From a virus (Duplodnaviria > Caudoviricetes): 64,000 nucleotides of DNA. This document shows, one piece after another, positions 1 to 54,230 of this stretch; position 1 is the first letter of the stretch, and each line of letters opens with the position of its first letter. Made by a program: the position numbers and the translations under genes. The stretch is from positions 128,001-192,000 of IMG/VR virus record IMGVR_UViG_3300015214_000001. One strand, given 5' to 3'. Below the pieces are notes generated by a model. The model had not been told where the DNA came from. It did no database searches and saw only the letters and a list, made by a program, of their open reading frames with translations.

Positions 1-246
1 GGTATTGAGACTCTAGCTTTTCATAACACCTACACGATCAAAAGCGTAGATGAAAATGGGGTAATTGAGTGCTTCAAACATGCTACTATTCAAGCCTTTA
101 TCGCAGAAGAAGATGGTACACTTGAAACACTGGAAGGCCCAAGCGCATTTAAAGTCGGTGACTTTATTGCTATTGGATCAAAAGGTGAGATGTGGGTTGT
201 TGGCGCTAAAGTTCGTGAGCAGTATAAAGAAGTTGCAGATAATTAA
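1..246 (+). CDS. Partial (5'-truncated) PGDYG-like phage protein
   Basis: Frame 1 is open from base 1 to TAA at 244-246 and reads ...GTLETLEGPSAFKVGDFIAIGSKGEMWVVG..., resembling the TLEG..(P)GD(Y/F)I..G..GE.(Y/W) motif. The track's 65..256 ORF is in a different frame. Confidence 0.6.
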   Translation, partial: GIETLAFHNTYTIKSVDENGVIECFKHATIQAFIAEEDGTLETLEGPSAFKVGDFIAIGSKGEMWVVGAKVREQYKEVADN

Positions 247-263
247 GGCCGTATGATATATTT

Positions 264-296
264 AAAAAGCGCCTATGGCAGATCATAGGCGCTTTT
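264..296. terminator. Bidirectional intrinsic terminator
   Basis: AAAAGCGCCTATG-gcagat-CATAGGCGCTTTT between convergent genes. Confidence 0.85.
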
Positions 297-300
297 GCTT

Positions 301-657
301 TTATAACGCTTTAGTCATCGGAGTGACAAACCACTCGCTACCAGATGATATGATGTGATACACAAACTCATCTACCCCACCCACATTTAAAGTCGCAGTG
401 AAACTTTTACCAATATCTTCTGGGTTTCCAAATATAGCAGATAATTCACCTTTTGTCGGCGGCGTTGACGTTATTGCCTCTGAGTATATGTGATTGATCG
501 GTTGCCATTTCATCATATCGCTAACGACATAAAGCGTCTGTGTATTGTTATCCCAATACCATGCTTGCCTTGATGGTGGTGTAGAAGGAAAGTCATCATT
601 GCCATGTCGATTAGCATGTATTGTTACTTTTGGCAAAACCTCATATTTTGAAAACAT
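301..657 (-). CDS. Hypothetical protein, end of tail/fibre cluster
   Basis: 118-aa ORF, last gene of the minus-strand structural operon. Confidence 0.6.
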   Translation of the reverse strand: MFSKYEVLPKVTIHANRHGNDDFPSTPPSRQAWYWDNNTQTLYVVSDMMKWQPINHIYSEAITSTPPTKGELSAIFGNPEDIGKSFTATLNVGGVDEFVYHIISSGSEWFVTPMTKAL

Positions 658-674
658 TTCTTGTTCGCCTTGAC

Positions 675-1622
675 CTAAAGTTGTTCTCTAGCGCTATACC
701 AAGTGATATTCTGCGTGTAGCTTAATATTGAAAATGAGTTTGACGTGTAATTTGCTATGAATAGGTATAAACCGACATCATTTTGTTGGCTATAGAATGG
801 AACGTTAACATTAACTGCATATTTATATTGCTCGGCATATTCAGGGTACTCAGGAGGATAATATTCCGCAACATAATTGACTAGTTGAGCATTACTCATA
901 TCAATATCCGAGTCGTGATCTTGTATTTTAAAATATATCCCAAATGTGACTGAGCTTCCACCACTAGGCAATGATAAAAGTATGTTTGCCTGTATATTGC
1001 CAAAGTTAGTATAGGGTAATATAGGCCCATTCCCGTCATCAGGCATTGCACGCCATACAGTAGTACCATCTATTTCTGTAATAAACGTATTGTTTGAACC
1101 GTTGATAATTGAATGCCTTAAAGTACCGTTATTCGAATCAGGCTGTAACACAACCTTCCAGTTCTCATTCATGCTATCATACGTAGGGATAGAAATTGGC
1201 GATGATCCGAAGTTATCGTAATAACCGCTGCCTAAAATATATCTATTACTCCACCCATTAGATATAGAGTCTTGCGTGACAACTAACGCCTCACCAATTC
1301 TAATAAGTGTAGTTGCCACGTCATTAAGCTCTTCTAGTTGGTTTGGTGGCTTAGGTGTGTTATACCAAGTATCAGTAAGAGCGTCATAACTTAATATATT
1401 TCCATCTTGCGGCGATGCGATGTCTACATCATCTAAATCAGCAAGACTTCCCCCACTTCCGCTCCCCCCACCACTGAGGTTAGTCACTGTCCCATTGTCA
1501 AAAATAACATTTACAGTTTTATTGTTACGAATAAACAACCTAGCTTGTCCCGCGTCAGGAGTTGGTGGATTAACGCTTTGCTCTGATAACTCGATATTGA
1601 TGTCAGTTACTTTTGTTGTCAT
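675..1622 (-). CDS. Putative tail fibre/receptor-binding-associated protein
   Basis: 315 aa; Gly linker, LADLDDV/LEELNDV repeats, DGNILSYD..TW motif; beta-rich C-terminus similar to that of 1638..4166. Confidence 0.55.
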   Translation of the reverse strand: MTTKVTDINIELSEQSVNPPTPDAGQARLFIRNNKTVNVIFDNGTVTNLSGGGSGSGGSLADLDDVDIASPQDGNILSYDALTDTWYNTPKPPNQLEELNDVATTLIRIGEALVVTQDSISNGWSNRYILGSGYYDNFGSSPISIPTYDSMNENWKVVLQPDSNNGTLRHSIINGSNNTFITEIDGTTVWRAMPDDGNGPILPYTNFGNIQANILLSLPSGGSSVTFGIYFKIQDHDSDIDMSNAQLVNYVAEYYPPEYPEYAEQYKYAVNVNVPFYSQQNDVGLYLFIANYTSNSFSILSYTQNITWYSAREQL

Positions 1623-22395: not shown

Positions 22396-25380
22396 CTAGT
22401 TCATGCCGATTTTCAAGACTTTCAACGCGGCTGGTTGCCAGACTTGACCGCCGACACGCGCACGAGCAAGGAACAACACTTGATTTCTCATTGCATAGTA
22501 GCTGTCATCGAAGCGTTGGATAGAGAATTCAACGCGCTTGCCAATTAAATAACCTCTTTGCAAGTCACCGAAGATAATCGGGAAGTTGCCTTCTACTGCG
22601 TCATCAGCCCATTCATTGTACACAATAGGGCGACCATATAAGAGTTCAGGCATTTGATGGCCATACATGCCGCTGTTGCGATCAAAGAATAAAGGATCGC
22701 CATTAGCATTCTTTAATTCCATCAATTGACGACCAGTATCTTGGCTCATGTACCACTTTGCATTTTTTCTATAACCCGCTGGTAAATGCTGGTACATCCT
22801 GACTAGCGCATCAGTGTTGGTCAACCCATAAATACTGCCTGATGGAACATAACCGCCGACTGTAGCAGTGCCTAGTGACTCATGACCAGTAACTTGCTCG
22901 TTAGTAACAATACCTTGAGGTTTACCTTGCCCATCACCACTCCAGACAAAAGTGTCATAATCGACTGCCATAGCTTCCGCAAACGTTTGACTAATGTAGT
23001 CTTGCGTGTTGAAGCTCGCGTCCTCTAGCATGTTATTTGACACAACGTCATGTAACATTGCTAAGTGGATAGGAAGTTTCAACTGCGAAAACGTGCTGGA
23101 TTCTGTGCTATGAACTAATGTTGGATCAGCAACTTGCTCATCGCCTGGCCAGCGAACAACAGCGCTACCAGCACGACGCGCATCAGTAGTGATAACATTA
23201 GGCTGGATTAACGTATCGGACGTTGTAGTACGAGTGCGACATTCTGCTGCCATCGCGGTAGCAGCCATGATGTTGGTATTCAACTCATCTGCCCAATCGG
23301 GAGGAACAGCAAAACCACCAGATGGATCAACGCTACCAAAATAGCCCTTAACTGCTGGATCGCCTAACCAAGAAGTACCACGAACATCAGAGTTATTCAT
23401 TGTGCCTTTAGCGTATAAAATACGCTTTTCTGTTTCGCTCATGGGGTTTAATCCACCGCGCATCCATGATTTAAACGCACGAGTATAAGCGCCTTCACGG
23501 TCTGCCTCATCCGTGATACTTCCAATTCTTGAGAACCCACCGCGCTGATTTGGAGCTTCTGCTTGTTCAGCTTTAATTGCGCGTTGTCTCCAATATTCAG
23601 CGCTATTTGTGTCAACGCTTTTAGCAGCTTTAGCACGATAACGCTTTTCGCCTAATACATCGCTCAAGATGGCTTCATCTTCATCAGACGCAAACCCTTC
23701 TTGTTGCTTTAAGCGTTTCAACGTCTTGCGGTAAGCAGCGCGACGCACAGAAGCGATAGCTTCATCTTCATCGTCACTTCTATAGCCGCCATAAGATGCA
23801 ACAGCTTCTTCGAGATCATCTTCATCAAAATCTTCTTCGTCGTCAAAATCTTCTTCAATCACGTCAATATCCTCATCACGCCATGCACGCCTTTGTGCAT
23901 TCTTGCGACGCATTGCGGCACGCTTAGAAGCAAGATTTTCAACATCTTCCACTGTAGCGCCGTCAATTTCAATGTCAGCTGGTTCAATGACATCTGTTTG
24001 TGTTTTACGACGTAACGCAGAGCGCTTTCCATTCGCATATGCTTTTTCAGCAATCAGTTCAACTAATGCGGCATCATCTGTGCGAGCAGCTTCATTGTCA
24101 TAGCGTAATTCTTCAATTTCGCTACGTAATGCAGATTGGTCATTACGAATTTCATCCAGTGAAGTCAAGATTGCCTCATTAACATCAGCGTTTCTGCGTG
24201 CATAACCACGTCTTGACCTACCATAGCGTTTTTCACTGGCAAAATCGCCTAATGGTTCTTCATCCCCAACGCCACCGATAGTAGATTCGTAATCCCCCTC
24301 AATAGTCGCTTCTAAGTCATTTGTCGCAGGAGCTAATTGCTTTGCGCGTCTCAACGCTTTTTGGCGAATTGCGCGGTAATACTTGTTGAATTCTTCGTCA
24401 AATTCTTCTTCCAGATCAACATCTTTTGAACGTGAAACGCTACGGAAGCGACGAACCATTTCTTTTTCAGCTAAATCAGATGCCAGCGCTTCGATTTCTT
24501 CTTCTACTTCAACTGACATGATTGCTTCTAATTCTTGCGCTTCTTGATTTTTCCTACTACGTGCTGAACGATTAATCTTCATTACAGAACTCTCCTGTGT
24601 CATTTCATCTTCAAGGCCAGCTAATGTTTCCTCATTCTCGGATTGCATTTTTGCCAGCGTTTCGTTAATTGTTTCTTGATAAGCATCTTTAGTAGGCCGA
24701 TGCGGGCCTGTTCTTTTAGAAGATTTACTGTCCTGTACTCTAACCCTATTCTCGAGTCCTCTTACAAAGTCAATATCTTCTTTAAGTACCGATTTAAAGG
24801 CGCGATATGATACTGATGGAACAAATGTTCTATTAGATTTCATCGCACGCACAGCCGTCTTACTAGGCTGTGCTGGTGTAGGGGTAATACTTCCCTCAAT
24901 TAATGGCCATACGGCAATTTCGCCACTATCTGCGATTTTAACAAGGTGATCGACACTTCCTGAACTCCATCCGAAATCAGCAGATTTAACCATGTCATAC
25001 ACAGCCCGAGAATACCTATCTCTTAAATCTAGCTGTGCAGTAACCCACAAACCCAACTCATCAGTTACTACAGACTTGATCTTGCCAATCTTTCGTAACC
25101 CCGCCTCACCATCTAAGCCATGATGATACAAGACTGGTCTTTCTACAAACCAATCAAGGCAAAACTCGGTATTAGGGGTGAAATATTCGCCTTGCAAATC
25201 TGTGTCTTGAGGCGAACCCCACGAAACAAGATACCCTTCTACGAAGCCATAATTGCCATCTTCTGATACATATGACTTAATTGCCTTTGTATCACCCGAT
25301 TTATGTATCAAATTTGCTTGGATTGTTTGCATGTTATCTTTAGTCTTGTTATTTTCAGTCATTATGATATGCTCATGCAA
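22396..25380 (-). CDS. Prohead protease-scaffold-major capsid protein fusion (HK97 fold)
   Basis: N-term VEGY..DLQGEYF...LYHHG...GLWV...GWSSGS...E.SITPTPA (HK97-type protease); charged low-complexity middle; C-term GGFAVP, GDGQGKPQGI, LYGRPIV, IIFGD, RVGGQV..P.A (HK97 capsid). Confidence 0.9.
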   Translation of the reverse strand: MHEHIIMTENNKTKDNMQTIQANLIHKSGDTKAIKSYVSEDGNYGFVEGYLVSWGSPQDTDLQGEYFTPNTEFCLDWFVERPVLYHHGLDGEAGLRKIGKIKSVVTDELGLWVTAQLDLRDRYSRAVYDMVKSADFGWSSGSVDHLVKIADSGEIAVWPLIEGSITPTPAQPSKTAVRAMKSNRTFVPSVSYRAFKSVLKEDIDFVRGLENRVRVQDSKSSKRTGPHRPTKDAYQETINETLAKMQSENEETLAGLEDEMTQESSVMKINRSARSRKNQEAQELEAIMSVEVEEEIEALASDLAEKEMVRRFRSVSRSKDVDLEEEFDEEFNKYYRAIRQKALRRAKQLAPATNDLEATIEGDYESTIGGVGDEEPLGDFASEKRYGRSRRGYARRNADVNEAILTSLDEIRNDQSALRSEIEELRYDNEAARTDDAALVELIAEKAYANGKRSALRRKTQTDVIEPADIEIDGATVEDVENLASKRAAMRRKNAQRRAWRDEDIDVIEEDFDDEEDFDEDDLEEAVASYGGYRSDDEDEAIASVRRAAYRKTLKRLKQQEGFASDEDEAILSDVLGEKRYRAKAAKSVDTNSAEYWRQRAIKAEQAEAPNQRGGFSRIGSITDEADREGAYTRAFKSWMRGGLNPMSETEKRILYAKGTMNNSDVRGTSWLGDPAVKGYFGSVDPSGGFAVPPDWADELNTNIMAATAMAAECRTRTTTSDTLIQPNVITTDARRAGSAVVRWPGDEQVADPTLVHSTESSTFSQLKLPIHLAMLHDVVSNNMLEDASFNTQDYISQTFAEAMAVDYDTFVWSGDGQGKPQGIVTNEQVTGHESLGTATVGGYVPSGSIYGLTNTDALVRMYQHLPAGYRKNAKWYMSQDTGRQLMELKNANGDPLFFDRNSGMYGHQMPELLYGRPIVYNEWADDAVEGNFPIIFGDLQRGYLIGKRVEFSIQRFDDSYYAMRNQVLFLARARVGGQVWQPAALKVLKIGMN

Positions 25381-27459: not shown

Positions 27460-30400
27460 TTAACCTCCTAACAGGTCTTGTTTTATCTTTGCAAATATGC
27501 CTTCAATATCTGGGGCGCTTTCGACCAATGCCGACTTCACTTTATCAGCTAATACCTCGTCTATATGAAGTGTCTCAAAGCGTAAACCCTTGTTAATGCC
27601 ATGTTTCAGCGTTGCTTTACGCCACTTGTTCAGTTCGGCAAGTGCTTTTCGAGTTGTCTCAACATCTTTAATATCAAAAAGTCTTATTTGTCCATCATAC
27701 TTGCCACTTGATATATTATCTTTGATTCGTTGCTCGCTCGATGAAACATCGTTAACAAATTCTAGCAAATCTGCTTGCATTGGTGGCGGCAATTGATTTA
27801 CATCAAAGCCTTGCTGATCTTGGATGTATCGGCTTAGTTTATGGAGGAGATTACTTCGTTCATACCCAATATAAAGCGCGTTCAGTTCTCTTTTTTCAAC
27901 ATCGCTCATCCACTTTTCAGACATATCTTTAACATCATCTTTAACAAATGATTTGCCACTATAATCCTCAAGCATAGTTAAAAATGGGACTTCATTTACA
28001 ACTTCATAATCCCCCCTGCTGACATATAACCCCATAGGACGAATAACCATCGGTGTTTCATGTCGCCTTACAAATGTATTTGGCGGGGCATATGCTAATG
28101 TAATATGTGGTGTAAAATTGCTAATTTTGCTATGTTGTGACAATGGTAAATTTAATGCCTGCATCCGCGTGATGACAGATGCTTGTAATGCTTTTAGATC
28201 ATCGGTTAATTCTACCGACGCATATATAACAGTAGCATCTGGGTTATCGAAAATATCAATATGAGACACGTAGATATTTAATGGAACTAATTCACTTGGC
28301 AATAACCCCATTAGGTGTTTCTCTGCATCACCATCAGCACTTAAGGCATACCCAAGTGTTATATGGAATGTGTCAGGTCTTTGCCATTCGATAGCAGTAT
28401 CATCACCTAATTCTGCGCTTAATTGGTCTTGTAGTTCAATCAAGCGTTCTTCATCACCAATCCACAATGATAAATATAGTTCTTGATTTTCTGACGTGCC
28501 GTCAGTTTGAGTTGCTATATTCTCGTAATAACTGCCGTTATCTGTATCAATATCCAACGTTTGTTCATCTAGCCATTCTTCAAACTCATCTGTTACACCT
28601 TCCACTTCATCGGCTACAGGTAGTGCGCTAGATGGCATAATATCTACCTCTCCACCATATAAAGGTGATAATGGCAATGGATCATTATCGCTGTTGTCAA
28701 TGACTAGTGTTTCCTCTGCTGCGCCGATTGGCCCATCAGTTCTAAGTGTTTGATTCCCCAAATAATCATTAAATGTCAATTGGCCGTCTGGTGAACCACC
28801 TAATGTTTTTTCTAAAAGCATATCTAACTCATCATCACGATTGCCTTGATGAGTAAAGCCACTTGGTGGGGTATCTGTTGGCTCAAGAGTTTCATCTGGA
28901 ATAGCGCGAACGCCATCATTGGCTTCTTCGATATTATCTTTAGACATCAATTCTTGAGCATAAGCATCATCTAACACATTAGCCACGCGCTTATATCCTG
29001 TTGTGGTATTATCTACAGGAATAGATAGTGCATCTTGAACGATGTCGCGCTTTACTAAATCATTATTGTAATACTCTAGTATTCTTTCGACACGTTGAGT
29101 ATCATGGTTCATCAGTTTATCTAACTTGACGCGAACTTCATCCGCATAACCATCAATGATATTGTCATCTGGGGGCAATCCTAGCTCTTGTCTTACTTCA
29201 CTACGTTTTAATATATTACCGCCCCATAATTCCATCACATTGCTGCGCTGTTCACCCACTTCATCTATGTAACCATCAACACCCTTTGGCCCTTCTTCTA
29301 TGTCTAATAGCGAGCGAGCTTCACCACGTTTAATAAGTTTTTCTCGCCATAAATCTTTAACTTGCTCGGCAAAGTCAGCGCCTCGTTCTAATTCTGATTG
29401 ATAACCATCTTCAAACTCTCTACCTTCTGGTACTGGCAAATTTAGTGCGCGTAGTGTCTGCGATTTTAAGGCTAAATCGCTATTCCAAGCATCTAAGGCA
29501 AATTGCTTTGATTGTTCAAGGTCTGAGCGATAGCCATCTGGCATACCAGGAGGCAACTCATGACCAAGCATCCTTAAAACTTCGCTTTTTAAGGCAAGGT
29601 CATTTGCCCATAACCAATCGGCATAAGTTTGTTGGCGCTGTGTAGGTAAATTTCCCGATGAGACAATCCTATCTAAAGGGGTTAATACACCGTCGTGAAG
29701 ATACCACCCATCAAGCTCTTTGACTGGTGGCATCTTCATCCGCACTCTAGCTTCATTGTAAGCCTGTAATTGACTATCAAAGAGGCTTACTTCAACACCA
29801 GCCCTATCGTCGCGATCAGCATCAAGTTCCGATATTTCACTTAAATCTATGACTAGCCGCATCCCATCGCGCAAGCCAAAGTCTCTAGCTAATGCTTCGA
29901 CGTAGCGTTCAGCTAGGGGGATAACGGTGTCATCCCATGCCCTTTTAATTAAGTCGGCATGTCGATCATGAGAACCACCAGAAGGCGTAACTATCAACTC
30001 CCTATCTAAGCCGATAGTTGTCGCAATGCCTTCTAAGGCTGTATCGTTCAAATCAGGAGCGCCAATCTCGCTGGCGCTAATTCCTACTTGCTCAATGCTT
30101 AATTTTTTATCTGTTACCATAGCACGCAAACTGGCATCCATGCCTTGCCAGTTGTCCTCAAATGCACGCTTTAATTTCAGCACATCCGAGTCTGTCATCA
30201 ACATAGAATCTTCTTCGCCTGATGACACTAAAATAAATGGCATCGCGCCACGAGTAAAATACTCTGCCATCCACTGAGCGATAGCAGAGTTAGCTACTGC
30301 TTCATGGATACAGACAGAAACCAATGATGTTCCACGAACGGGGTTAGCTGGATTCCATCGTGTAACATAAATAAATTCTTTACGTGTTAAGTAGGTTCGG

Positions 30401-31050
30401 TCTTTTAGAATGTCGCTTGTGGTGTTATAGCGATTAACGTTAACGCCATCAATGTCACCATAGATAGTCGTTATGTTCGCATCCCACATCGGCTTATCTA
30501 TCACATAAATACCAGCTACAGCGCCATCCTTGTAAGAATAAATCGGATTGCCTTCTCGATCTGCTATAACAGCGCGATTAGTTTTTACTTTATAGGCGAC
30601 AGAAGCTCCATAGATTGATTCGTTCAGCCAAGTTCTTGACAAATACTCAGCGCCATCTTTGCTGAGTATTTTATTTAAGCGGTCAGTTTCAGGTAAACGC
30701 ACCCATTGACCATCTTTTTCAATCTCAGCGACAATGTTTACACGCCTGATTAAATTCGCAACGCGGTTAATAGCCGCGTGCAAATAGACAGACGTTAAAT
30801 ATGCTGTTAAAACTTGGTTTTCAGAATAACCCAAGTTTCCAGCAGAGGCATTAATAAATGAACTAATGTGAGAGCTAAAAACATCAAAGCTCTTTATAGA
30901 TTGAGACGGGTCTATCAGTTTTATACCCCCGCCGCGATTGTCTGTATTATTCTGGTACAGAGCAGGGGAGTTAGGTTTTGAATAAGGCTTCTGAGAAGGC
31001 TTATTATTATCAAATTGTTGCACCATTGAGGTGATCGCTTTTATAACCAT
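27460..31050 (-). CDS. Portal protein with tandem crown-like repeats and fused 2H phosphoesterase domain
   Basis: N-term portal motifs (VYLHAAINRVA, NP.NPVRG.S, YFTRGAMP, TVIPLA, NEARVRMKMPP); two HxT motifs FHITLGY and PHITLAY near C-terminus. Confidence 0.85.
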   Translation of the reverse strand: MVIKAITSMVQQFDNNKPSQKPYSKPNSPALYQNNTDNRGGGIKLIDPSQSIKSFDVFSSHISSFINASAGNLGYSENQVLTAYLTSVYLHAAINRVANLIRRVNIVAEIEKDGQWVRLPETDRLNKILSKDGAEYLSRTWLNESIYGASVAYKVKTNRAVIADREGNPIYSYKDGAVAGIYVIDKPMWDANITTIYGDIDGVNVNRYNTTSDILKDRTYLTRKEFIYVTRWNPANPVRGTSLVSVCIHEAVANSAIAQWMAEYFTRGAMPFILVSSGEEDSMLMTDSDVLKLKRAFEDNWQGMDASLRAMVTDKKLSIEQVGISASEIGAPDLNDTALEGIATTIGLDRELIVTPSGGSHDRHADLIKRAWDDTVIPLAERYVEALARDFGLRDGMRLVIDLSEISELDADRDDRAGVEVSLFDSQLQAYNEARVRMKMPPVKELDGWYLHDGVLTPLDRIVSSGNLPTQRQQTYADWLWANDLALKSEVLRMLGHELPPGMPDGYRSDLEQSKQFALDAWNSDLALKSQTLRALNLPVPEGREFEDGYQSELERGADFAEQVKDLWREKLIKRGEARSLLDIEEGPKGVDGYIDEVGEQRSNVMELWGGNILKRSEVRQELGLPPDDNIIDGYADEVRVKLDKLMNHDTQRVERILEYYNNDLVKRDIVQDALSIPVDNTTTGYKRVANVLDDAYAQELMSKDNIEEANDGVRAIPDETLEPTDTPPSGFTHQGNRDDELDMLLEKTLGGSPDGQLTFNDYLGNQTLRTDGPIGAAEETLVIDNSDNDPLPLSPLYGGEVDIMPSSALPVADEVEGVTDEFEEWLDEQTLDIDTDNGSYYENIATQTDGTSENQELYLSLWIGDEERLIELQDQLSAELGDDTAIEWQRPDTFHITLGYALSADGDAEKHLMGLLPSELVPLNIYVSHIDIFDNPDATVIYASVELTDDLKALQASVITRMQALNLPLSQHSKISNFTPHITLAYAPPNTFVRRHETPMVIRPMGLYVSRGDYEVVNEVPFLTMLEDYSGKSFVKDDVKDMSEKWMSDVEKRELNALYIGYERSNLLHKLSRYIQDQQGFDVNQLPPPMQADLLEFVNDVSSSEQRIKDNISSGKYDGQIRLFDIKDVETTRKALAELNKWRKATLKHGINKGLRFETLHIDEVLADKVKSALVESAPDIEGIFAKIKQDLLGG

Positions 31051-42437: not shown

Positions 42438-43826
42438 CTACTTGCGTTTATAGGTATTTGGTTCTGCCATTCTAACGATGGTTGGCGTAAACTTCCCTAC
42501 AATCCTGATATATGGCTGATGAGATAAAACTTCCTTAGCTGACTTATAAACTGCTGGCAGTTCATCTACCCCACCGCCAATCAAGTAGATGTTATGTTTA
42601 TCTTTGATGTGTTGATGAACATCAAGTGATCCGAATTTCTCAATAGCTTGTCGCCTGCTCATTACTCGGCCCGCGCCATGTGACGCGCTGTTATAGCTAT
42701 AATCCATACTTGCAGATGGTATATGGTCAACAATATACGCGCCTTCTGCCATCGTTGCTGGAATTACCCCTCTCTGCCCACTAACTAGTTCAGTAGCACC
42801 TTTGCGATGAATATATAATGTGTTGCCTTCACTATCTACAATTTCTGACGCAAAGTTATGCACACTATAGACGATTGTATGGCGAGTATCTGCTGATACA
42901 TTTGGGGATATAGCCTCCCATAGTCGCTTATGAACATACGCATGGCTATGACGAGCAAACTTTCTAGCAAAGGCCATCATAGCCATATAGTCATTAATTA
43001 ATTGCTTATCCATAAGAGGAGCAGCGGTAATACCCTTAGGCATTTTGAATTGTTTACGTGCTACTTCCTCAAAGTGTTTAGCGATAACTGCACCAATCCC
43101 ACGACTGCCGAAATGAGACAATAACGCGGGACTAGGTTGGTCATCACCTAATCGGCGTGTATAGTATCCATATTCTACAAAATGATTTCCATCACCCGAT
43201 GTGCCAAACTGGGTAGGAACTAATTGCTTGAAGGCATTATAAGTAGCGATACCTTCTTTGGTCACTAACTCTGTGGATAATTCATCTAAGGCAAGATCAA
43301 GACCATAGGTTTTATATGCCTCAAGGTCAGGTTGTTGACTATGACCAAAGAATGTGTTATTGAGAATTGCATCAACAACAACATCATGCGCTACATCTTC
43401 AAAAGACTCAGGACTACTGAAATAAACAGAACAAGCTAAGTCAGCGCTTGCCCATTCTGGAACAGGATGCTTACTGGCGATTACACCACCAACAGGCATC
43501 CCATTTTCCCTTGTGCGATGTGCATCAGGCATTAATGCGCCACCAACAACTGTTTCTAGCGATAACATGGCATTCATGTCAGCAATTGCCGATGGCTCAA
43601 TCAGCGAACCACCAAATACGGTCATATCAGGTTTATGTTTATGTAATGGTAAATCTTTTGGCGCATTATTCTTTAAGAATTGCGCTTTTTCCTTCAACCA
43701 TACCCAAACATCATCGTAACTATGACCTTCATTAAGCATCTTAAACGGGATGCTATGATCTGGAAACTGATGTTTCTTCATGTAATCTTGGATAGCTTGG
43801 TTTGATGTTTTATTGCTCATTAGCAT
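42438..43826 (-). CDS. rtcB: RtcB-family RNA ligase
   Basis: MPDAH, PVGG, ADLAC, GTSGDGNHFVE, HFGSRG, HN, HRKGAT, SHGAGR.MSR, DE.P..YK motifs. Confidence 0.92.
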   Translation of the reverse strand: MLMSNKTSNQAIQDYMKKHQFPDHSIPFKMLNEGHSYDDVWVWLKEKAQFLKNNAPKDLPLHKHKPDMTVFGGSLIEPSAIADMNAMLSLETVVGGALMPDAHRTRENGMPVGGVIASKHPVPEWASADLACSVYFSSPESFEDVAHDVVVDAILNNTFFGHSQQPDLEAYKTYGLDLALDELSTELVTKEGIATYNAFKQLVPTQFGTSGDGNHFVEYGYYTRRLGDDQPSPALLSHFGSRGIGAVIAKHFEEVARKQFKMPKGITAAPLMDKQLINDYMAMMAFARKFARHSHAYVHKRLWEAISPNVSADTRHTIVYSVHNFASEIVDSEGNTLYIHRKGATELVSGQRGVIPATMAEGAYIVDHIPSASMDYSYNSASHGAGRVMSRRQAIEKFGSLDVHQHIKDKHNIYLIGGGVDELPAVYKSAKEVLSHQPYIRIVGKFTPTIVRMAEPNTYKRK

Positions 43827-44761
43827 CCCCTCAGTTCAGCTACTTTGAATTTAATCTCATCTATGAAAAAGTTGTCTGCTGATCCCTTTAAACGGTTGAT
43901 GCTAAATTCATCTTTGGCGTGGGCTACAAACTCATTATAATCTCCCCATTTGCCATAGATTTCATCAGCCAATTGATTGCGCCAAATAATAGCATCCTTG
44001 ATAGAGACGTTGCCAGTCCTAATGCCCTTAAGTGTTTCTTGTTCATCACCAACCATCGCAGTTTGCATAAAAGCATCCCCAGTAGTAGAAGCGTATCTGT
44101 GACGAAACATTGATACGTCAATATATCTACTGATGCTTGATAAGCGCTCGGCTATACGTGCAGTGTCTCTTTCACTATCAGCGGATGTCAATATGCTTTT
44201 AGCTACGATAATGCGCCGAATAGCATCAGCTAAATCTTTGCGACATTCAACTTCATTGCCCTGAGAATAATGATAAAATGCTTGAGCTAATTTGCTAGAA
44301 CGCTTACTAGACAAACACAATGAAGGGTCATCACACCACAACAATAAGGTTTTGCTATCAAAGTTTCCTGATCCACCTAGTAACCTAAACACTGTCTTTT
44401 TAGAGATCAGCTTAGGTGCTAACAGACGTGCTAATTTTCCCACAGCGTCTTGTTTCCAAACATGCGATTCATCAGCAAATAAAACATCAAAATATTCTGG
44501 TGTCCCCTTGCTATAAATAGCATCAAAGAAATCTGACACAAAATAAGTTGTCATGTCAACATTGGCAATTTTACTACTCTGACTTCTGCTGACTGTTTCC
44601 CCGCCAACATTTAACAGCTTGCGATAACCTACGGAAAAGAACCCCCGCAAATCAGTATCGCTTACCTTTAATGGCAATGAAGATTGATTAACATCATTTT
44701 CGGTGATCTGTAATCCATATAGGATACTGCCGACTTTAGTTACTAAATGCAACATTTCCAT
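43820..44761 (-). CDS. DNA polymerase beta-superfamily nucleotidyltransferase (RlaP-like)
   Basis: GSILYGL...SDTDLRG catalytic motif; overlaps rtcB start. Confidence 0.7.
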   Translation of the reverse strand: MEMLHLVTKVGSILYGLQITENDVNQSSLPLKVSDTDLRGFFSVGYRKLLNVGGETVSRSQSSKIANVDMTTYFVSDFFDAIYSKGTPEYFDVLFADESHVWKQDAVGKLARLLAPKLISKKTVFRLLGGSGNFDSKTLLLWCDDPSLCLSSKRSSKLAQAFYHYSQGNEVECRKDLADAIRRIIVAKSILTSADSERDTARIAERLSSISRYIDVSMFRHRYASTTGDAFMQTAMVGDEQETLKGIRTGNVSIKDAIIWRNQLADEIYGKWGDYNEFVAHAKDEFSINRLKGSADNFFIDEIKFKVAELRGC

Positions 44762-45414: not shown

Positions 45415-46884
45415 TTAGCTACCATCACCTAGAATTGAACCATCACTTACTGCGCGGTTAAATTCGCCATTTAAATCTTTATCTTTCCACATCAAATGAA
45501 TAGTGCCTTTTTTGTACACACGACAATTGAAGAATTCACTCTCAAACACATCGCTGTAAGTAGATTGGTTTTTGCGACACTTATCACTATGATCTTTTAG
45601 CGCGTCACCGACTGAGTATATGGTTGTTGGATCAACCCCACGTAACCAGCACAAGATTTTTTCTAAATCTTCAATAGCGGATTTAGACCAGTTCTGGTAA
45701 GAGTAAGACCAGCTTATCCCCCATGTATCTACACTTACAGCATAGGGGAAGATATTCTTCATGGCGATTTTCCATGATTTATTGTTCTTCCAAGTTTCGC
45801 CATTTTTCCCATCAATGCTCATCATTGTTTTAGCAACTGCATAGGCGGCCTCTTGCATCAAACGGTCTTTATTGAACATAAACGCTTCTAAGACTAGATA
45901 GATGTTTTTTACAGTAAAAGCCGTTCTCATACCATGCTGTTGTACTTCCTGTAAAAACTTCTGACGATATTCATGTGTGGTTTGTTGACCGAAGCGAGTA
46001 GCTTGAAAAACAGCTTCCCAGAAACGAACCTTGATATTTTTAATTTCTGCATTAACACTTTCATATCCATCATTCTTGAATTGAACGATTTCGCCAGTGG
46101 TTGTTCTTAAGACTTCTTCATAGTGCTTAAGCTGTTTTAATGCTTCAATTGCTCGGTTATAGCGTTCAACCAATAGCGTGATGCTATCTGCACGAATAAC
46201 CAACCCACCAGATACTTCGTCTTGATCGGCAACTGTAAAGTCATCACGGCTATCCATTTCTTGCCAATTAACGCCCGAGCTTGTTTCTTCCTTATCAGGC
46301 TTGTACAGCCAAATAATAACAGTCTCGATATTTGTTTTACGAATTGCTTCTGAAAACCCACCTTGAACATATTCGCAGTTCCCGAAAATATCAATCAAAT
46401 CTACTAGCTTTTTGCGGTCATGTGTGGAAGGGTTCTTGACTGCATCCGCGTTCAATAATACAACCATCTTGCCGCCTGGCGCTAAAATATCCCACATTTT
46501 TAATACGTGCTGCACACCATTATTAAATGGTGGATTTGCCACGATAACATCAATAAGAAACGGGTCACTTTCAGCCAAAAAGTCAGTGCCGATTACAGTA
46601 TAACCTTTTGATTCAAGTATTCGACTACGTTCAGGATTGACTTCGTAGACCAACATATGTTCAACATTAACACCTGTTCGTTTTAAGTAATCTAGGATAT
46701 GTCCTTCACCTGCGCTTGGTTCGAGCAGTGAATATTTAACAGGCAATGATCTACGAATGTGTTCCCCACGCTTTGTTTCTAGGATAAATGGCGCTACCAT
46801 TTTTTGAATTAATGGCAGTGGGGTTGGGTAAAACTGTTCTTCATCGTGATACACGTTATGCTCCTTAATGTATATTGCACTCAA
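45415..46884 (-). CDS. Amino-(N6A/N4C) DNA methyltransferase with DUF4942-like C-terminus
   Basis: FYPTP, LLEPSAGEG, DFL, NPPF; C-term F..RVYKKGTIHL. Confidence 0.85.
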   Translation of the reverse strand: MSAIYIKEHNVYHDEEQFYPTPLPLIQKMVAPFILETKRGEHIRRSLPVKYSLLEPSAGEGHILDYLKRTGVNVEHMLVYEVNPERSRILESKGYTVIGTDFLAESDPFLIDVIVANPPFNNGVQHVLKMWDILAPGGKMVVLLNADAVKNPSTHDRKKLVDLIDIFGNCEYVQGGFSEAIRKTNIETVIIWLYKPDKEETSSGVNWQEMDSRDDFTVADQDEVSGGLVIRADSITLLVERYNRAIEALKQLKHYEEVLRTTTGEIVQFKNDGYESVNAEIKNIKVRFWEAVFQATRFGQQTTHEYRQKFLQEVQQHGMRTAFTVKNIYLVLEAFMFNKDRLMQEAAYAVAKTMMSIDGKNGETWKNNKSWKIAMKNIFPYAVSVDTWGISWSYSYQNWSKSAIEDLEKILCWLRGVDPTTIYSVGDALKDHSDKCRKNQSTYSDVFESEFFNCRVYKKGTIHLMWKDKDLNGEFNRAVSDGSILGDGS

Positions 46885-47729
46885 CTATACAATCGCTTTC
46901 AATATCATCTAAAAACATCATTCGCAATTGCTTAGGTTTATCTCTATCGGCTCGCATAGTTTCTATAAATAATTCTACCAGTGGATAAGGCTTTTTAACA
47001 CCGTCAATTGTTCGCGTCAAAATGGCATAATCGGCATATTTAGGGTTACTTCTCATCTTATTCTCCCAAACCATTGCACGCATGAAATTTGGTAAATTGA
47101 AATAGATCGCTCCACGCCAATATTTAGTACCAGCTTTAAAACAAGTACCGCCACAATTGCCAGTTACCATATTACCCAGTTCGCGTTCATAGTAGCTAAT
47201 CGGCAATTTGATATTATGTTGTTCACAGTATGCTAATGGGTCTTTTATTCGTGGGTAAAACCAGAGAGGGTATTTAACATATACATTGCGTTTAGACCAA
47301 TTTTCGATGGGCGCTGGCAATCTTCCGTATGGCTTGTCAGTTCTGGCGCGTTGATACCGATCCTTCATGTTGTAACCAATCAACATGAAAACCTTATTGT
47401 ACCCCCCCCATAATACGAATAGTTTCAACATACTGTTGAATAGGCTTTACTTTTAGCTCAATCGTGCAATTGGCAACACGGCTATTAAATATCATGCCTT
47501 GTTCTTCTGATATGTCATAGGGAGTTTTCCCGCTATTTAAGCGATGGATTTTAATCCTCAATAGGTTTTCAAGGTCACGCAAAAATCTATGATGATCTTC
47601 ATGCTCTATATTGGTGTCGGCAAATACAGGGTAAATATGTTCATGGGGATATAGTTCATAAGCTCTAATTAGGGCAGCTGCGCTTGATGCGCCACTTGAC
47701 ACTGAAACGATATAAGCCGATTTTTCCAT
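46865..47729 (-). pseudogene. PAPS-reductase/PP-loop family gene 1, frameshifted at G8 (would be 287 aa with G7)
   Basis: 5' half VSVSSGASSA, FADT..EHED..RFL, C..ELK; 3' half IGY, PL, NCGGTCFKAG..YW; the halves change frame within ATG GGG GGG GTA CAA TAA. Confidence 0.8.
47402..47409 (-). repeat. G8 homopolymer at frameshift
   Basis: 8 consecutive C on + strand. Confidence 0.95.
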
Positions 47730-48649: not shown

Positions 48650-49120
48650 GTGTTGAATGATTGTTTTCAACACAGCACGTTAACAACACAAGGGGAAACA
48701 GCTATGTCCTATTACTACTTAGATCAAACTAGCTTGCCTATTGAACCGATTAGCTTTGTGCAAATGTGGTTCATGCGATATATGCAAATGCCGTTAACGG
48801 AAGGTCAAGCGGAGTCCATACGTCAAGACCTATTATCCCGACAGGCAAAATTGCTACAATGTGCTAACTTTGACCATAAAACAAAGCAATTTGTCGAATG
48901 GTGGGAATATCGCACATTGAACAAAGAAGCATTTATCTTAGGCATGTCTAGCCAAGTGGTAATTCTAAATCGGTCTGTGCTGAGACTAAATAACAATATG
49001 ATTTACCCATTGTTACGCGCCTCAGTATGGGAAAGCACCTACGAAACTTTCGACAATCGCTATATATTCAATATTGGCGAGTCGGTTGCTCAACACATCC
49101 CTCACGAAAGTTTCGCCTGA
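48650..49120 (+). CDS. Hypothetical protein (likely start MSYYY)
   Basis: AAGGGG RBS before internal ATG; first gene of + strand island. Confidence 0.55.
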   Translation: MLNDCFQHSTLTTQGETAMSYYYLDQTSLPIEPISFVQMWFMRYMQMPLTEGQAESIRQDLLSRQAKLLQCANFDHKTKQFVEWWEYRTLNKEAFILGMSSQVVILNRSVLRLNNNMIYPLLRASVWESTYETFDNRYIFNIGESVAQHIPHESFA

Positions 49121-49127
49121 TTATTCA

Positions 49128-49158
49128 TACTTGACAGATAGTTACTATCTGTCAAGTA
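49128..49158. repeat. 14-bp perfect inverted repeat
   Basis: TACTTGACAGATAG-tta-CTATCTGTCAAGTA upstream of clamp gene. Confidence 0.75.
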
Positions 49159-49197
49159 ATATTTTTATCAAACAAACACAAGGAAAAGGAAATAAAA

Positions 49198-51594
49198 ATG
49201 TCCAATGTTAATGCAATTATTCACGGAACAAAGTTTAATCGCTTCGTAGACTTAGCCAAGCGATTAAAGACATGGTATGGGCAAAAGGATATTGAAGTAT
49301 CCATTTACAATAACAAAGTGTATGTGTCGATGTTTCAAGGCGATTTAGTCGCTATCATCGGCAATACATATAATGAGGAAAATCTTTGCTTTTCGTTTCA
49401 GTTGGATGAAATCACAAGTAAGATCGCTAGTCTTGCTGATATAAGGTTAGAACTGTCCGTGCCGATTGATGGTGGTAATGCCACATTGTCAGACAGTGGT
49501 GCTACAATCAACATTCCAGCTGTTAAGCCACTAGGTCTTATCAGTAAAGAAATTACCAGCTATGATGATAGGCTAAATGTGACACAATTCATGACTTTAG
49601 ATAAAAAGGTTATGAAAGAACTAATCAAGTCTATCTCAGCAACATCACATGAGGTTTTATTTATTATTGGTGATGGTTCTAAAGTTCGGTTTATGACATA
49701 TGATGGTTTGGGCATTTCGCAAATCATTGTTGATGTTGAAGCTCATGAACCGTTCCAACGGTCTTATTATGCAAAGCCAGTTTTAACAGCGCTTAAGGGA
49801 CTATCTCTAAGCAAAGATGTTAAAACAATCAACTTGTCCTTAAATGAAAACGATGGTTTTCTAGTGTATGCCGATGATGAATTGACATACTTAGTGAGAA
49901 CCGACCACAATAAAGACGATTATAACCCTGAGAAATACCCATTAAATTTTCAAAGCAAAATTGACTTTATGATCGTTAATGAGCAAGCGCAATTTGTCAA
50001 CCTTAACGGAAAGTCAATGTCATTAGCGCAAGTCATCAGCGATAAAGGCTTAGATAAGCAAACCTGTTGGATTACGGCTAATGCGCTATCTGAAACCATC
50101 ACAATAGCAAATATTATTGGTGGTTACAATGATGTAACATTCCCTGCATTTGTCAAAAATGGGACTGAAATTGCTGTAGGCATTAATGGCAAACTGCTAA
50201 AAAGTTTGCTCACGACTTATGGTGACTTAATGTTTAGTATCCGTGATGATGCTCTTGTTATCACAGTTAATGGTCAAGGTGGCTTTGAAGTAAACAGCAT
50301 TATCGCACCGATGGCACTTGACTTTAACAATGATGTGGCGCGTAACGTAATTAAGCCTGTTATGAGTGTGAATCCAGCCACATACATTGACGCGAATGAG
50401 TTCTATGCTATTATTCAAGCATTGCTCAACAATAGTGATAGTGGGACGATCTCTATCTACAATAGAGATAATGGGTTACAAGTCATTAGTGGCAATGGGG
50501 TTAAGTATGAGGTTGGCTTTGTGACAAATAAGCCAATTGAGGGGATGCCAATTAACGCTCGCGCTAACTCGAATGCGTTCTTCAAACCTAGCGATAAGAA
50601 GTCTTTATCGGCAAAGTTTAGCAATCTAACTAGTAGCATGTTGAGCGTGTACGTTATCGACAATAGCATTAAGCTATATGACGAAAACAATGAGATTATC
50701 ACATTGCCCTTTTATGTCAATGATGACACCAAAGAAGTTGTTATTACAAACTATAAGCGTACTGAGTTCTTCAATAGCAAACAAAAGGCAGTTGTCACAT
50801 TAACCAGCGATGACTTTAGAAATGCCGTTAACATCGCTAGTAAATTCGCGGCAACCGATAACAATAGACCTACAATCAATAGTGTGCATTTCTCTTTCCG
50901 TAAATCAGAAGTTGAAATTGTTGGCACTGATGGTTATAGGCTGAGTGTAGATACCAGAAATAACCTAGCGGGTACTGTTGATGCTGATGGTTTGTGCCTT
51001 GAGCCTAACGCACTGCTTAATACGCTTAAATCAATTGCTAACGCTTATATCTCATTAGTGCTGGTTAATGATGGTGATACTGTAGCTATTATCGGACATG
51101 ATGAACCAGATAACCTAACATCTGACAGTAGCAAAACTATCACCTATCTGTTTATCATTCCTGGTAGATTTCCTGATTATTCAGTAATCTTACCTGCTAA
51201 ATCAAGCATGATCTATTTTGAAGAAATTGAGATCACGTCTGATAAAATCACAAGTAATGGTGATAGTTTTGAAACAGTGTTTGAGCGTGCAAATAAACTA
51301 TCAAGCGACAATCATTTTCTAGGTGTATTCACTGTAAAGAGATATACAAGTACAGTTACATTCAGTGTCCCTCATGCCGACAAAAAAGCACAAGGTCATG
51401 CTCTATCGCTAGACATCCCCGCGCAAAATATTCATGCTGATTACAATATCGGTGTGAATATAAAATACTTGTTAGATGCTGTGAAGTTAAGCGATAAGCA
51501 CAAACATATGTTGTACTTTAGAGAACAACGCGACTATCTAATTGGTAAGTTTGGAACAGTTACATACGTTATCATGCCAATGTTGAACGCCTAA
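49198..51594 (+). CDS. Double-length DNA polymerase III beta (sliding clamp)-like protein
   Basis: C-half: FAATDNNRPTINSVHF, VGTDGYRLS, GRFPDY..ILP, IGVNIKYLLDAVK, YVIMPM; N-half has degenerate equivalents (MTYDG, VGINGKLLKSLL, SIIAPM). Confidence 0.8.
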   Translation: MSNVNAIIHGTKFNRFVDLAKRLKTWYGQKDIEVSIYNNKVYVSMFQGDLVAIIGNTYNEENLCFSFQLDEITSKIASLADIRLELSVPIDGGNATLSDSGATINIPAVKPLGLISKEITSYDDRLNVTQFMTLDKKVMKELIKSISATSHEVLFIIGDGSKVRFMTYDGLGISQIIVDVEAHEPFQRSYYAKPVLTALKGLSLSKDVKTINLSLNENDGFLVYADDELTYLVRTDHNKDDYNPEKYPLNFQSKIDFMIVNEQAQFVNLNGKSMSLAQVISDKGLDKQTCWITANALSETITIANIIGGYNDVTFPAFVKNGTEIAVGINGKLLKSLLTTYGDLMFSIRDDALVITVNGQGGFEVNSIIAPMALDFNNDVARNVIKPVMSVNPATYIDANEFYAIIQALLNNSDSGTISIYNRDNGLQVISGNGVKYEVGFVTNKPIEGMPINARANSNAFFKPSDKKSLSAKFSNLTSSMLSVYVIDNSIKLYDENNEIITLPFYVNDDTKEVVITNYKRTEFFNSKQKAVVTLTSDDFRNAVNIASKFAATDNNRPTINSVHFSFRKSEVEIVGTDGYRLSVDTRNNLAGTVDADGLCLEPNALLNTLKSIANAYISLVLVNDGDTVAIIGHDEPDNLTSDSSKTITYLFIIPGRFPDYSVILPAKSSMIYFEEIEITSDKITSNGDSFETVFERANKLSSDNHFLGVFTVKRYTSTVTFSVPHADKKAQGHALSLDIPAQNIHADYNIGVNIKYLLDAVKLSDKHKHMLYFREQRDYLIGKFGTVTYVIMPMLNA

Positions 51595-51615: not shown

Positions 51616-51655
51616 ACAAAAAGAGCAAGCTATTGATATGGCTTGCTCTTTTTGT
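51616..51655 (+). terminator. Intrinsic terminator
   Basis: ACAAAAAGAGCAAGC...GCTTGCTCTTTTTGT. Confidence 0.85.
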
Positions 51656-51849: not shown

Positions 51850-52794
51850 TTATTCTAGCATTTGAACGTGTTTAGATGCACCAAAGTCAAGCAACTCATT
51901 AGGAAGTTGATTAAGTCTTACCTGTTGCTCATACCACTTGATAACACTTGCATTCCAGATCACAGCAGCTAAGTGATCTTCTGATGTATCCTCATTAGCA
52001 AATGCAATAACATGACGCAACATAGAAGCATAAACCCTACTAACGTTAATGCCCTTTTGCCAATTATTGACACCATATTTAGCAGCGCCGACATAGTATA
52101 GCCTAGCAACGTGATTCAACGCGATTTTAGGGATTAATGTGTAATCGCACTCTGATGTATTATAAAGTTCGGCAAACTGGGGTTTATCGCTGTTATATAG
52201 TGCCTGATCGGTAGCGCATCCACCATACCCACTTTGCAAAGTTTTCAGCACATCTAATGGGATTAGATGATACATTGGCTTGCCTTGCTGATTATCTCTG
52301 TGAGCGCCTGTTGTAAACTCGTCAGTTACATTGCCACCCTTGACAATTGGCTTATCGCTGTCAAGTTCTAACTGAGGAATCACATCGCCTAGTGTTTTGT
52401 TGGTCATATTGAATTGATGAATAAGCTCATCTAGGCCACCATCTTCATAATAGTGTTTCCAGCGAACCTCTTTAGTCTCAGGGTCAATCCATGCGTGAGA
52501 TAGAGCAGACCATGAGTAATAACCCTCATTATCCATTGAATACGTTTTCTCATCAGCACATGAGCCTTTTATGAATTTCACTTCTCCTTCGGCAATGTCG
52601 TAAACCCATAGCGTATTTGTCATTGCTACAATTAAAGCCTCATGCACATGATCGACAAAAACAGCTATCGGCTTATATTGATTAACAGATTCGTAAGGAT
52701 ATTTCCATTTTTTCTCTGATATGTGCCGATAGTATAGTGAACGATCACGATGCACTAACTCATAATCTTTAAATCTTACGTACTTTACTGACAT
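51850..52794 (-). CDS. dATP/dGTP diphosphohydrolase (DUF5664-like) domain protein
   Basis: TGAHRD..GKP.Y.LIP, GAAKYG.NNWQKG, SMLRH, EDHLAAVIWNA. Confidence 0.8.
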   Translation of the reverse strand: MSVKYVRFKDYELVHRDRSLYYRHISEKKWKYPYESVNQYKPIAVFVDHVHEALIVAMTNTLWVYDIAEGEVKFIKGSCADEKTYSMDNEGYYSWSALSHAWIDPETKEVRWKHYYEDGGLDELIHQFNMTNKTLGDVIPQLELDSDKPIVKGGNVTDEFTTGAHRDNQQGKPMYHLIPLDVLKTLQSGYGGCATDQALYNSDKPQFAELYNTSECDYTLIPKIALNHVARLYYVGAAKYGVNNWQKGINVSRVYASMLRHVIAFANEDTSEDHLAAVIWNASVIKWYEQQVRLNQLPNELLDFGASKHVQMLE

Positions 52795-53814
52795 TCTTGC
52801 GCCCCTTGAACGATTGTGTTACAGGATTTAATGCTAAGTCAATATCAAGCCCACCAGTGCCATCAAATGCCCTTTGACCGATGCAAGATTGACACAGATT
52901 AAAGGGGTCTTGATTATCCAATTCTTCTGGCTTAATCGACTTTTGTAAATGCCACCCTTGAGTCAATCTGTCAGGGTGTAAGGTCATATCTTCTTCATCC
53001 CATATTCCTGATTGAACTAAGGCTAATTGTAATTCATATGCCGTTTGAACTAGTTTTTCACGCAATTGATCTATAGTTTCATACTCTGGACTAACAATTG
53101 CGCGTCGTTCACGTTCACCGATGCTCAAATTCGCATAACATTGACATTCATAAGAATGCTTCATGTAATCAGCATATTCGTTGCGCGGGATGTTAAGTAT
53201 CTCTATTGCTAAATCGCGTTCTTGAATGTGCCAATCAAAGATGGGGTTAGCTAGAGATTTAATGACTTTGCCACGCTTATCCTTTTTAAGCATCATCAAA
53301 TCAACAAAGCTATTTCGACGTGAGCTTTCAGCTTTCCGTAAGCCTGAAATTTGCATTACTTCACTCTGTTTGACCTCTAACTTTTTTGCCACTTGAGAGA
53401 ATAACTGATCGAGTAGCTTACCCTTCAATTCACGATACATAATAGAGTGATAGGCTGGTGATGGAAAACCCCATGAAATAATCAATTGCTCATATCTGCC
53501 TTTTTGTGGTGGCTTGCCAATTCTTAATTCCCATTGATATAAATTGGCAATATCATAGATGTATTGTTTAGTTTCTTTAGCGCCTGTTAGCGTATTAGCC
53601 CAACAAGCGCCGACAAAACTATCAGGGAAAGCCAGTTGAGCGATTCTTCCTGCTAAAACAGAATCGTGACCACCAGACCACGATACAGCTACGCCTTTAA
53701 ATTCGTAAAGATGGTATTCTTTGCGAATCCTCTCAATTGTTTCATGTATTTTCTGTTCTACCCCCCCCGATTTGTTTCAAAGTGGGTTGTATCCTGAACA
53801 GTTTTGTTATTCAT
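52769..53814 (-). pseudogene. PAPS-reductase/PP-loop family gene 2, frameshifted at G8 (would be 348 aa with G9)
   Basis: ATG at 53814 gives MNNKTVQDTTHFETNRGG*; the frame after the tract reads VEQKIHET...VAVSWSGGHDS...NTLTG...GFP.P..H..Y.ELK...SGLRKAESSRR...NPIFDW...ECQC. The track ORF 52769..53485 is only the 3' part. Confidence 0.85.
53761..53768 (-). repeat. G8 homopolymer at frameshift
   Basis: 8 consecutive C on + strand. Confidence 0.95.
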
Positions 53815-53825
53815 TATAGCCCTTT

Positions 53826-54230
53826 CTAGCTATCAGCTTCAATGTAATAGCCTTCTTTGTGTACATCATACGCGGGTAAATCAATTAATGACTTACCCAT
53901 TTCACGGTTTAATGCAGAGATAACTTGTTCAGTATCTCGTGTGACTGGTTGCCACTTCCCATCACTGCTGAAATCACCTTCATTGAACTGCTTTCTTAAT
54001 GCAGAGCAATAAAAGCCTGTAGGCTTTAGGTATGATAGCTCACAACAAACGCGATATTCGCCTTGATCGAACCATATCAAACCTAAGTAAGGTTCTTCTG
54101 ATAAAATAATCCCATCAATCGCTTGCCTAATATCAGGCAAGGATTGCACTACAATGTTTCTTTTGGACATTATATCCTCTCTTTTTGATCTATGCACCCC
54201 TCTAACGATATAACCACAATTATACAACAT
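53826..54230 (-). CDS. Hypothetical protein, paralog of 48076..48342 (likely start MSKRNI at 54170)
   Basis: GAGG RBS before internal ATG; motif alignment with 48076 protein. Confidence 0.65.
   Translation of the reverse strand: MLYNCGYIVRGVHRSKREDIMSKRNIVVQSLPDIRQAIDGIILSEEPYLGLIWFDQGEYRVCCELSYLKPTGFYCSALRKQFNEGDFSSDGKWQPVTRDTEQVISALNREMGKSLIDLPAYDVHKEGYYIEADS

Follow-up and report, generated by a model that had tools for sequence, protein, structure and literature searches.

The window analyzed in this study is a 64,000-nt stretch of DNA corresponding to positions 128001-192000 of a 208,458-bp virus record (IMGVR_UViG_3300015214_000001; Caudoviricetes), which carries direct terminal repeats and is rated complete. 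At 49198-51594 of the window, an open reading frame (ORF) encodes a protein of 798 amino acids (aa), referred to here as the double clamp, which very probably joins two beta-type sliding-clamp modules in tandem in one chain. The gene and its parts, as assigned by profile alignment (hhalign), database searches, and structure models (ESM Atlas, AlphaFold2 (AF2), VIA), are as follows:

49180-49192, + strand: Shine-Dalgarno-like purine-rich stretch AAGGAAAAGGAAA, immediately 5' of the clamp ATG (sequence reading)
49198-51594, + strand: tandem double beta-clamp ORF (P0001), 798 aa, ATG start, stop codon included
49198-50322, + strand: N module, residues 1-375, predicted degenerate three-domain beta-clamp fold with its pocket mostly lost (hhalign, ESM Atlas, AF2, VIA)
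50323-50373, + strand: linker between the modules, residues 376-392 (DFNNDVARNVIKPVMSV), lying between the two ranges aligned by ESM (1-375 and 393-798)
50374-51591, + strand: C module, residues 393-798, predicted diverged DnaN-type clamp with an intact pocket (hhalign, phrog_947, TIGR00663, BLASTP, ESM Atlas, VIA)

Searches of Pfam, PHROGs, NCBIfam, and PDB sequences detected only residues ~530-795 of the protein, equivalent to domains II and III of a clamp. The C module was matched by phrog_947 ('DNA polymerase processivity factor') with an E-value (E) of 1.4e-18, and PDB beta clamps matched the C half with E 8e-4 and weaker. When aligned by hhalign to a profile made from an alignment of 45 clamps, the C half gave a probability of 99.7% and E 7.7e-27, and at a permissive threshold the match covered 3-412 against profile positions 1-367, so that domain I was included. 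The phage also encodes a canonical DnaN of its own, to which the C module was aligned by BLASTP with 23% identity over domains II-III (E 6e-14). An earlier sequence-only reading of this DNA had singled out four beta motifs in the C half, TDGYRL (577-582), GRFPDY (656-661), IGVNIKYLLDA (750-760), and YVIMPM (790-795, with IMPM at 792-795); all of them are present and fall on conserved clamp columns. The residues kept by the C module at the pocket columns are T577, D578, G579, R581, and L582; G656, F658, P659, and Y661; N754 and Y757; and I792, M793, and P794.

The N half (residues 1-386) had no match in Pfam even at E 10 and no meaningful match in NCBIfam, where TIGR00663 gave none, and the N module (1-375) was likewise without a match in the PDB sequence search. 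Against the profile of 45 clamps, the N module aligned by hhalign with E 2.2e-5 and a score of 42.1 over 261 collinear columns (90-375 against 92-367), and the extended alignment was also collinear (1-380 against profile positions 1-372). In contrast, the scores of shuffled sequences (n = 30) ranged from 11.0 to 21.7, none of them aligning over more than 76 columns, and reversing the sequence gave 18.9, which places the N half, taken alone, above all 30 shuffles. Secondary alignments of the N module were offset by exactly one domain, the signature expected from the three-fold internal repeat of a clamp. The degenerate landmarks that had been described in the N half, in clamp order, lie on homologous columns of the collinear alignment, with YDGLGI at 168-173, VGINGKLLKSLL at 327-338, and SIIAPM at 367-372 (IAPM at 369-372).

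The strongly conserved clamp columns are kept at 12 of 49 positions in the N half, compared with 25/49 in the C half and 37/49 in the phage's own DnaN; together with the lack of pairwise similarity between the halves, these counts agree with the strong asymmetry suggested earlier for a covalent pseudo-dimer. At the pocket columns, the N module carries Y168, D169, G170, G172, and I173; K239, D240, and Y242; N330 and L333; and I369, A370, and P371, that is, TDGxRL is changed to YDGLGI, the FP of GxFPDY to KD, the Y of N..Y to L, and IMP to IAP. At the sequence level, most of the conserved pocket residues are lost from the N module, and the partner pocket is conserved in the C module only, as had been proposed.

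The ESM Atlas model of the full protein is a single-sequence model (predicted template modeling score (pTM) 0.49, predicted local distance difference test (pLDDT) 0.66), and the evidence it provides is independent of any clamp alignment. In this model, residues 1-375 superimposed on a DnaN cluster with a template modeling score (TM) of 0.75 over 349 residues, and residues 393-798 superimposed on DnaN with TM 0.81 over 358 residues. AF2 modeling of the N module, using an alignment that included clamps, yielded pLDDT 80.1 and pTM 0.80, with a helix-and-strand pattern occurring three times, and VIA comparison of this model with solved DnaN chains gave Z 26.4 and a root-mean-square deviation (rmsd) of 3.2 Å for 337 aligned residues (range 2..374). 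The C module in the full-length AF2 model matched DnaN with Z ~30.8 (VIA). Both modules are predicted by these models to be complete three-domain DnaN folds. Along with the profile alignments, this bears out the proposal of two beta-clamp protomers in one 798-aa polypeptide and argues against an unrelated fold of the N half, the outcome that the sequence-only reading had named as speaking against it. The modules are acidic overall (isoelectric points 5.0 and 5.6), and several of their predicted helices are rich in lysine and arginine, as in DNA-encircling clamps.

Relatives of the double clamp were sought in several collections. Among 5.8 billion proteins, a word-indexed search retrieved nothing but the double clamp itself, and an exhaustive HMMER search of 1.84 billion cluster representatives found neither a full-length nor an N-module homolog, only 54 ordinary clamps, all aligning to residues ~470-796 with E 2.8e-7 or weaker. 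No match was found by tblastn against 50,697 phage records, no relative by a back-translated scan of IMG/VR, and nothing in viral or metagenome contigs by a wobble-degenerate pattern across the linker. The clamp profile revealed no long fusion at E 1e-5 among proteins of 703-2005 aa, which is weak evidence, as the double clamp itself was not recovered; the sole longer match, P0032 (547 aa), was rejected as a tandem protein, being a single clamp with an N-terminal extension of ~167 aa. By structure, the best 30 ESM Atlas models were all single clamps, and the strong matches in BFVD were all single clamps of 320-470 aa. A further BFVD entry, A0A1C7A3Q1_1, an uncharacterized 804-aa protein of Haloarcula californiae icosahedral virus 1, was aligned over 686 columns (Foldseek E 1.4e-12, TM 0.31, rmsd 21 Å); it may be a second multi-clamp-domain protein or a match driven merely by repeats. 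The literature search found no natural tandem or single-chain beta clamp, and a comparative survey of jumbo phages (PMC7824862) mentions none; thus, for a single-chain double clamp no natural precedent was found.

Several observations weigh against the tandem architecture or the role proposed for it below. All Pfam and NCBIfam scores lie under the curated cut-offs, namely PF02767 25.5 (cut-off 27), PF00712 20.3 (24.4), and PF02768 19.8 (27) for the whole protein, and TIGR00663 69.7 bits (137.65) for the C module. Neither BLASTP nor hhalign detected similarity between the N half and the C half; the same methods detected none between the N half and the phage DnaN. Since the halves share no direct similarity, duplication and fusion cannot be distinguished as the origin of the gene. 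The AF2 model of the N module is partly circular, because its multiple sequence alignment came from clamps, and the full-length AF2 model is weak (pLDDT 58.6, pTM 0.55, with pLDDT 25-62 in the N half). The latter model also contains an artefact, because the MAFFT alignment had set the N-terminal ~28 residues of most clamps against residues 274-301 of the query. As a consequence, AF2 began the C module with a strand and a helix taken from residues 289-310 (VIA ranges 289..797), and this feature was rejected as arising from the alignment. The protein is a singleton, and therefore neither conservation nor covariation supports selection on the fusion. Finally, the function of the double clamp, its partner, the timing of its expression, and its loading by the host loader are all inferred.

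A singleton with an N half that keeps 12/49 conserved positions could also be an artefact or a decaying gene, produced when two neighboring clamp genes became one through a recent mutation or an error in sequencing or assembly, or retaining its N half as a dead remnant. We consider this very unlikely, given that the 2397-nt frame is unbroken, the GC content and the GC content at third codon positions are uniform across the N and C halves, the identical protein is recorded on 2 contigs, and two predictors confidently give the N half a clamp fold, whereas a drifting sequence would not be expected to keep one. Sequence reading also found no Shine-Dalgarno motif before the internal ATG at 50362 (Met389), and a separate C-half product from this start was rejected on that ground.

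Known sliding clamps consist of six clamp domains contributed by two or three identical chains, and in the standard description the subunits either have two domains and form trimers or have three and form dimers; DnaN, a protein of ~370 aa, assembles into a symmetric homodimer that has two pockets and a pair of equivalent interfaces (PMC4858162). The double clamp shares with DnaN (PF00712/PF02767/PF02768, TIGR00663) the three-domain fold common to both modules, three tandem clamp domains being found in each (hhalign and ESM Atlas; AF2/VIA for the N module), and its C module keeps TDGxRL, GxFPDY, N..Y, and IMPM. It differs from the DnaN homodimer in that both protomers are in one chain and are dissimilar in sequence, with one pocket kept and one interface tethered. 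Instead of a head-to-tail homodimer of identical chains, the modules are covalently joined in one ORF, and the hydrophobic cleft between domains II and III, as judged from its residues, appears in the C module only. PCNA and T4 gp45 also form six-domain rings, but as trimers of two-domain subunits and in the PCNA lineage, not that of DnaN. Remodeling of clamp domains by phages is exemplified by Rhc of Chimalliviridae (bioRxiv 10.64898/2026.10.01.755736), which combines one clamp-derived domain with RNase H, does not make up a full ring, and belongs to the PCNA lineage.

The short linker reported after the N half was confirmed and comprises ~17 residues (376-392), or ~23 from strand to strand, measured between the strand that ends domain III of the N module (365-369) and the start of the C module at ~393. 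The inter-domain connectors within the N module are 18 and 21 residues long in the AF2 model, and a connector of ~23 residues compared with 18 and 21 favors closure in cis, with the two modules as in-ring neighbors. In the models, the sixth junction looks similar to the other inter-domain junctions of a pseudo-six-fold ring. Alternatively, pairing could be intermolecular, the N module of one chain binding the C module of another. The products would be either domain-swapped dimers, with two linked rings, or open chains running head to tail, and they might tie together two partners or two DNA segments. Such an assembly would be compatible with a flexible linker (pLDDT <50 over 360-400 in the full-length AF2 model) and with a full-length pTM of only 0.49-0.55; however, the connector matches the intra-module ones in length, which points to an adjacent in-ring position, and cis closure is entropically favored. 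We therefore regard assembly in trans as improbable and lean, if only slightly, towards a self-closing single-chain ring that would work as an asymmetric clamp.

The double clamp is not the only clamp of this phage, whose genome also contains the following gene:

G000:C1:61321-62451 (L001 1495-2640), - strand: canonical phage DnaN, 381 aa (P0058), 332.7 bits to the clamp profile

This DnaN belongs to the same family as the double clamp but, unlike it, is of single length and, with 256 bits, exceeds the TIGR00663 cut-off of 137.65. Its sequence identity to DnaN from Anaerolineae and from other Chloroflexota genomes and metagenome-assembled genomes is 45-56%, which suggests that the 208-kb phage has a host in the Anaerolineae/Chloroflexota lineage. 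A cluster mate of the phage DnaN at 90% identity (P0059) is located on a 205,306-bp contig, which implies that a relative of ~205 kb exists. The phage further encodes a DNA polymerase III (Pol III) alpha subunit on an ORF of ~1110 aa, RecJ-like, DnaB-like, and primase-helicase genes, and ribonucleotide reductase; a family A polymerase was not found in its genome, nor was a clamp loader detected with PF13177, TIGR02397, and PF06144, all applied with control genomes that were matched. As a canonical DnaN is already encoded, the double clamp is an extra clamp, and as no phage loader was detected, any loading of it would depend on the host loader.

The presence of a canonical, host-like DnaN for replication is also compatible with a clamp mimic. 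Rather than serving as a phage processivity ring, the double clamp could sequester host clamp-binding proteins through the C-module pocket or through mixed rings with host beta; its targets would be the host loader, polymerases, and repair or defense factors, as part of host takeover. That the extra clamp is a fast-evolving orphan, as is common for host-interaction genes, and that it has one functional-looking pocket only would fit such a decoy. However, complete three-domain folds in both modules and several lysine- and arginine-rich helices would be superfluous for a peptide-pocket decoy, and no anti-clamp protein of such a form is known, the phage Twort inhibitor Gp168 (PDB 7evp) being listed as a molecule separate from the beta clamp. 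We judge a decoy unlikely.

Returning to the self-closing ring, two three-domain DnaN-fold modules arranged head to tail would supply six ring domains from one 798-aa chain, and the chain would fold back to complete one ring. Domain III of the C module and domain I of the N module would form its only non-covalent gate, with the single partner pocket lying beside it. In structures of the E. coli loader with its clamp, the protomer drawn off as the ring opens is the one whose canonical pocket is bound by delta, after which the other protomer extends its domain I (PMC11436948). From the subunit order we infer that the gate there is formed by domain III of the delta-bound protomer and domain I of the other protomer. 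By analogy, the sole untethered interface of the double clamp (C-III/N-I) would adjoin its sole intact pocket, giving the polarity appropriate for a clamp loader; this argument is only modest evidence, because the prior chance of such an arrangement is one in two. As the phage is without a detectable clamp loader, the host loader is invoked in the proposed mechanism: acting via the C-module pocket, it would open the gate and load the ring onto DNA.

A close comparison is the engineered one-cleft E. coli beta+/betaC heterodimer (Scouten Ponticelli, Duzen, Sutton 2009, PMC2685083; Sutton et al. 2010, PMC3022782), in which one cleft works and the other is disabled. In this ring, loader binding, loading, and Pol III stimulation are normal, whereas unloading is severely impaired (PMC2685083), and one cleft is enough for viability in vivo (PMC3022782). 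The beta+/betaC ring is a laboratory pair of separate chains that are a five-residue deletion apart, whereas the double clamp is a natural fusion of highly diverged modules. Given the behavior of one-cleft E. coli beta together with a tethered interface, a natural one-cleft clamp should be amenable to loading and persist on DNA. The double clamp, having a single cleft and a single tethered interface, would load, support a polymerase, and be hard to unload or dissociate, and could act as a long-lived, one-partner, DNA-tracking platform beside the ordinary phage DnaN. Its partner could be the phage Pol III alpha, a DNA-modification enzyme from a neighboring gene, or a factor for late transcription. 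We tentatively suggest that the double clamp might represent the first natural single-polypeptide clamp ring, with one gate and an adjacent pocket, loadable by the host and resistant to unloading, serving as a single-client platform apart from the replicative DnaN.

Because known clamps are symmetric, the number of clefts needed and the interface that opens have been studied using engineered heterodimers. If the proposal is true, such questions could be addressed with a natural asymmetric single-chain beta clamp, whose single gate, single cleft, and defined polarity would make it a ready-made reagent, and evolution would have explored the one-chain solution, completing the series of three chains with two domains (PCNA, gp45), two with three (beta), and one with six. 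It would also suggest that large phages already equipped with a replicative clamp put beta-type clamps to a second use outside replication. Should the protein be a decoy instead, it would represent a novel kind of phage takeover factor directed against the host clamp interaction network. Either significance has to be read with the caveat that a single orphan gene of one uncultured phage lineage is concerned.

The clamp gene forms, together with a smaller ORF, a small + strand island among minus-strand genes and is flanked by nucleotide- or DNA-modification-type genes (45415-47729 and 51850-54230). The features of the island and its surroundings are as follows:

45415-46884: methyltransferase with DUF4942, near the clamp island
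47394-47729 and 52769-53485: weak PAPS_reduct matches (PAPS-reductase-like fragments), on either side of the clamp island
48704-49120, + strand: 138-aa upstream ORF in the same orientation as the clamp gene, without a family match (ORF list, family searches)
49128-49158, + strand: 14-bp perfect hairpin followed by a T-rich run, between the 138-aa ORF and the clamp gene (folding free energy (dG) -17.7 kcal/mol, z -5.8)
51616-51655, no strand assigned: intrinsic terminator hairpin with an A-run 5' and a U-run 3' (dG -26.4 kcal/mol, z -8.77)
51850-52794: protein with an N-terminal dATP/dGTP diphosphohydrolase domain

The + strand island with its own terminator, described in the sequence-only reading, is therefore recovered as the 138-aa ORF, the clamp gene, and the hairpin at 51616-51655. 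None of 200 shuffles was as stable as this hairpin, which is placed so that it can terminate the clamp gene and the convergent minus-strand gene alike. The hairpin at 49128-49158 lies directly after the 138-aa ORF and 40 nt 5' of the clamp start codon; it is terminator- or attenuator-like and could damp read-through into the clamp gene. The genes in the neighborhood also include RtcB and a nucleotidyltransferase, and it is conceivable that a client of the double clamp is encoded among these and the flanking modification-type genes.

Between the two flanking PAPS-reductase-like cassettes, tblastn detected no similarity at E 0.01. C8 tracts (G8 on the coding strand) occur at 47402-47409, where ORFs overlap, and at 53761-53768. 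An RtcB-type RNA ligase, a nucleotidyltransferase, and a tRNA nucleotidyltransferase of the CCA-adding type are encoded at 42438-44761 of the window and at L006 15134-16630, and this set suggests a tRNA repair module. The window also contains unusually long structural genes, in which the major-head-protein match covers residues 478-991 of a 994-aa ORF and the portal match covers residues 175-466 of a 1196-aa ORF, as well as two ORFs of exactly 1319 aa, one with a weak tape-measure match and the other with none; these long ORFs are located at 22396-25380, 27460-31050, 6621-10580, and 12266-16225.

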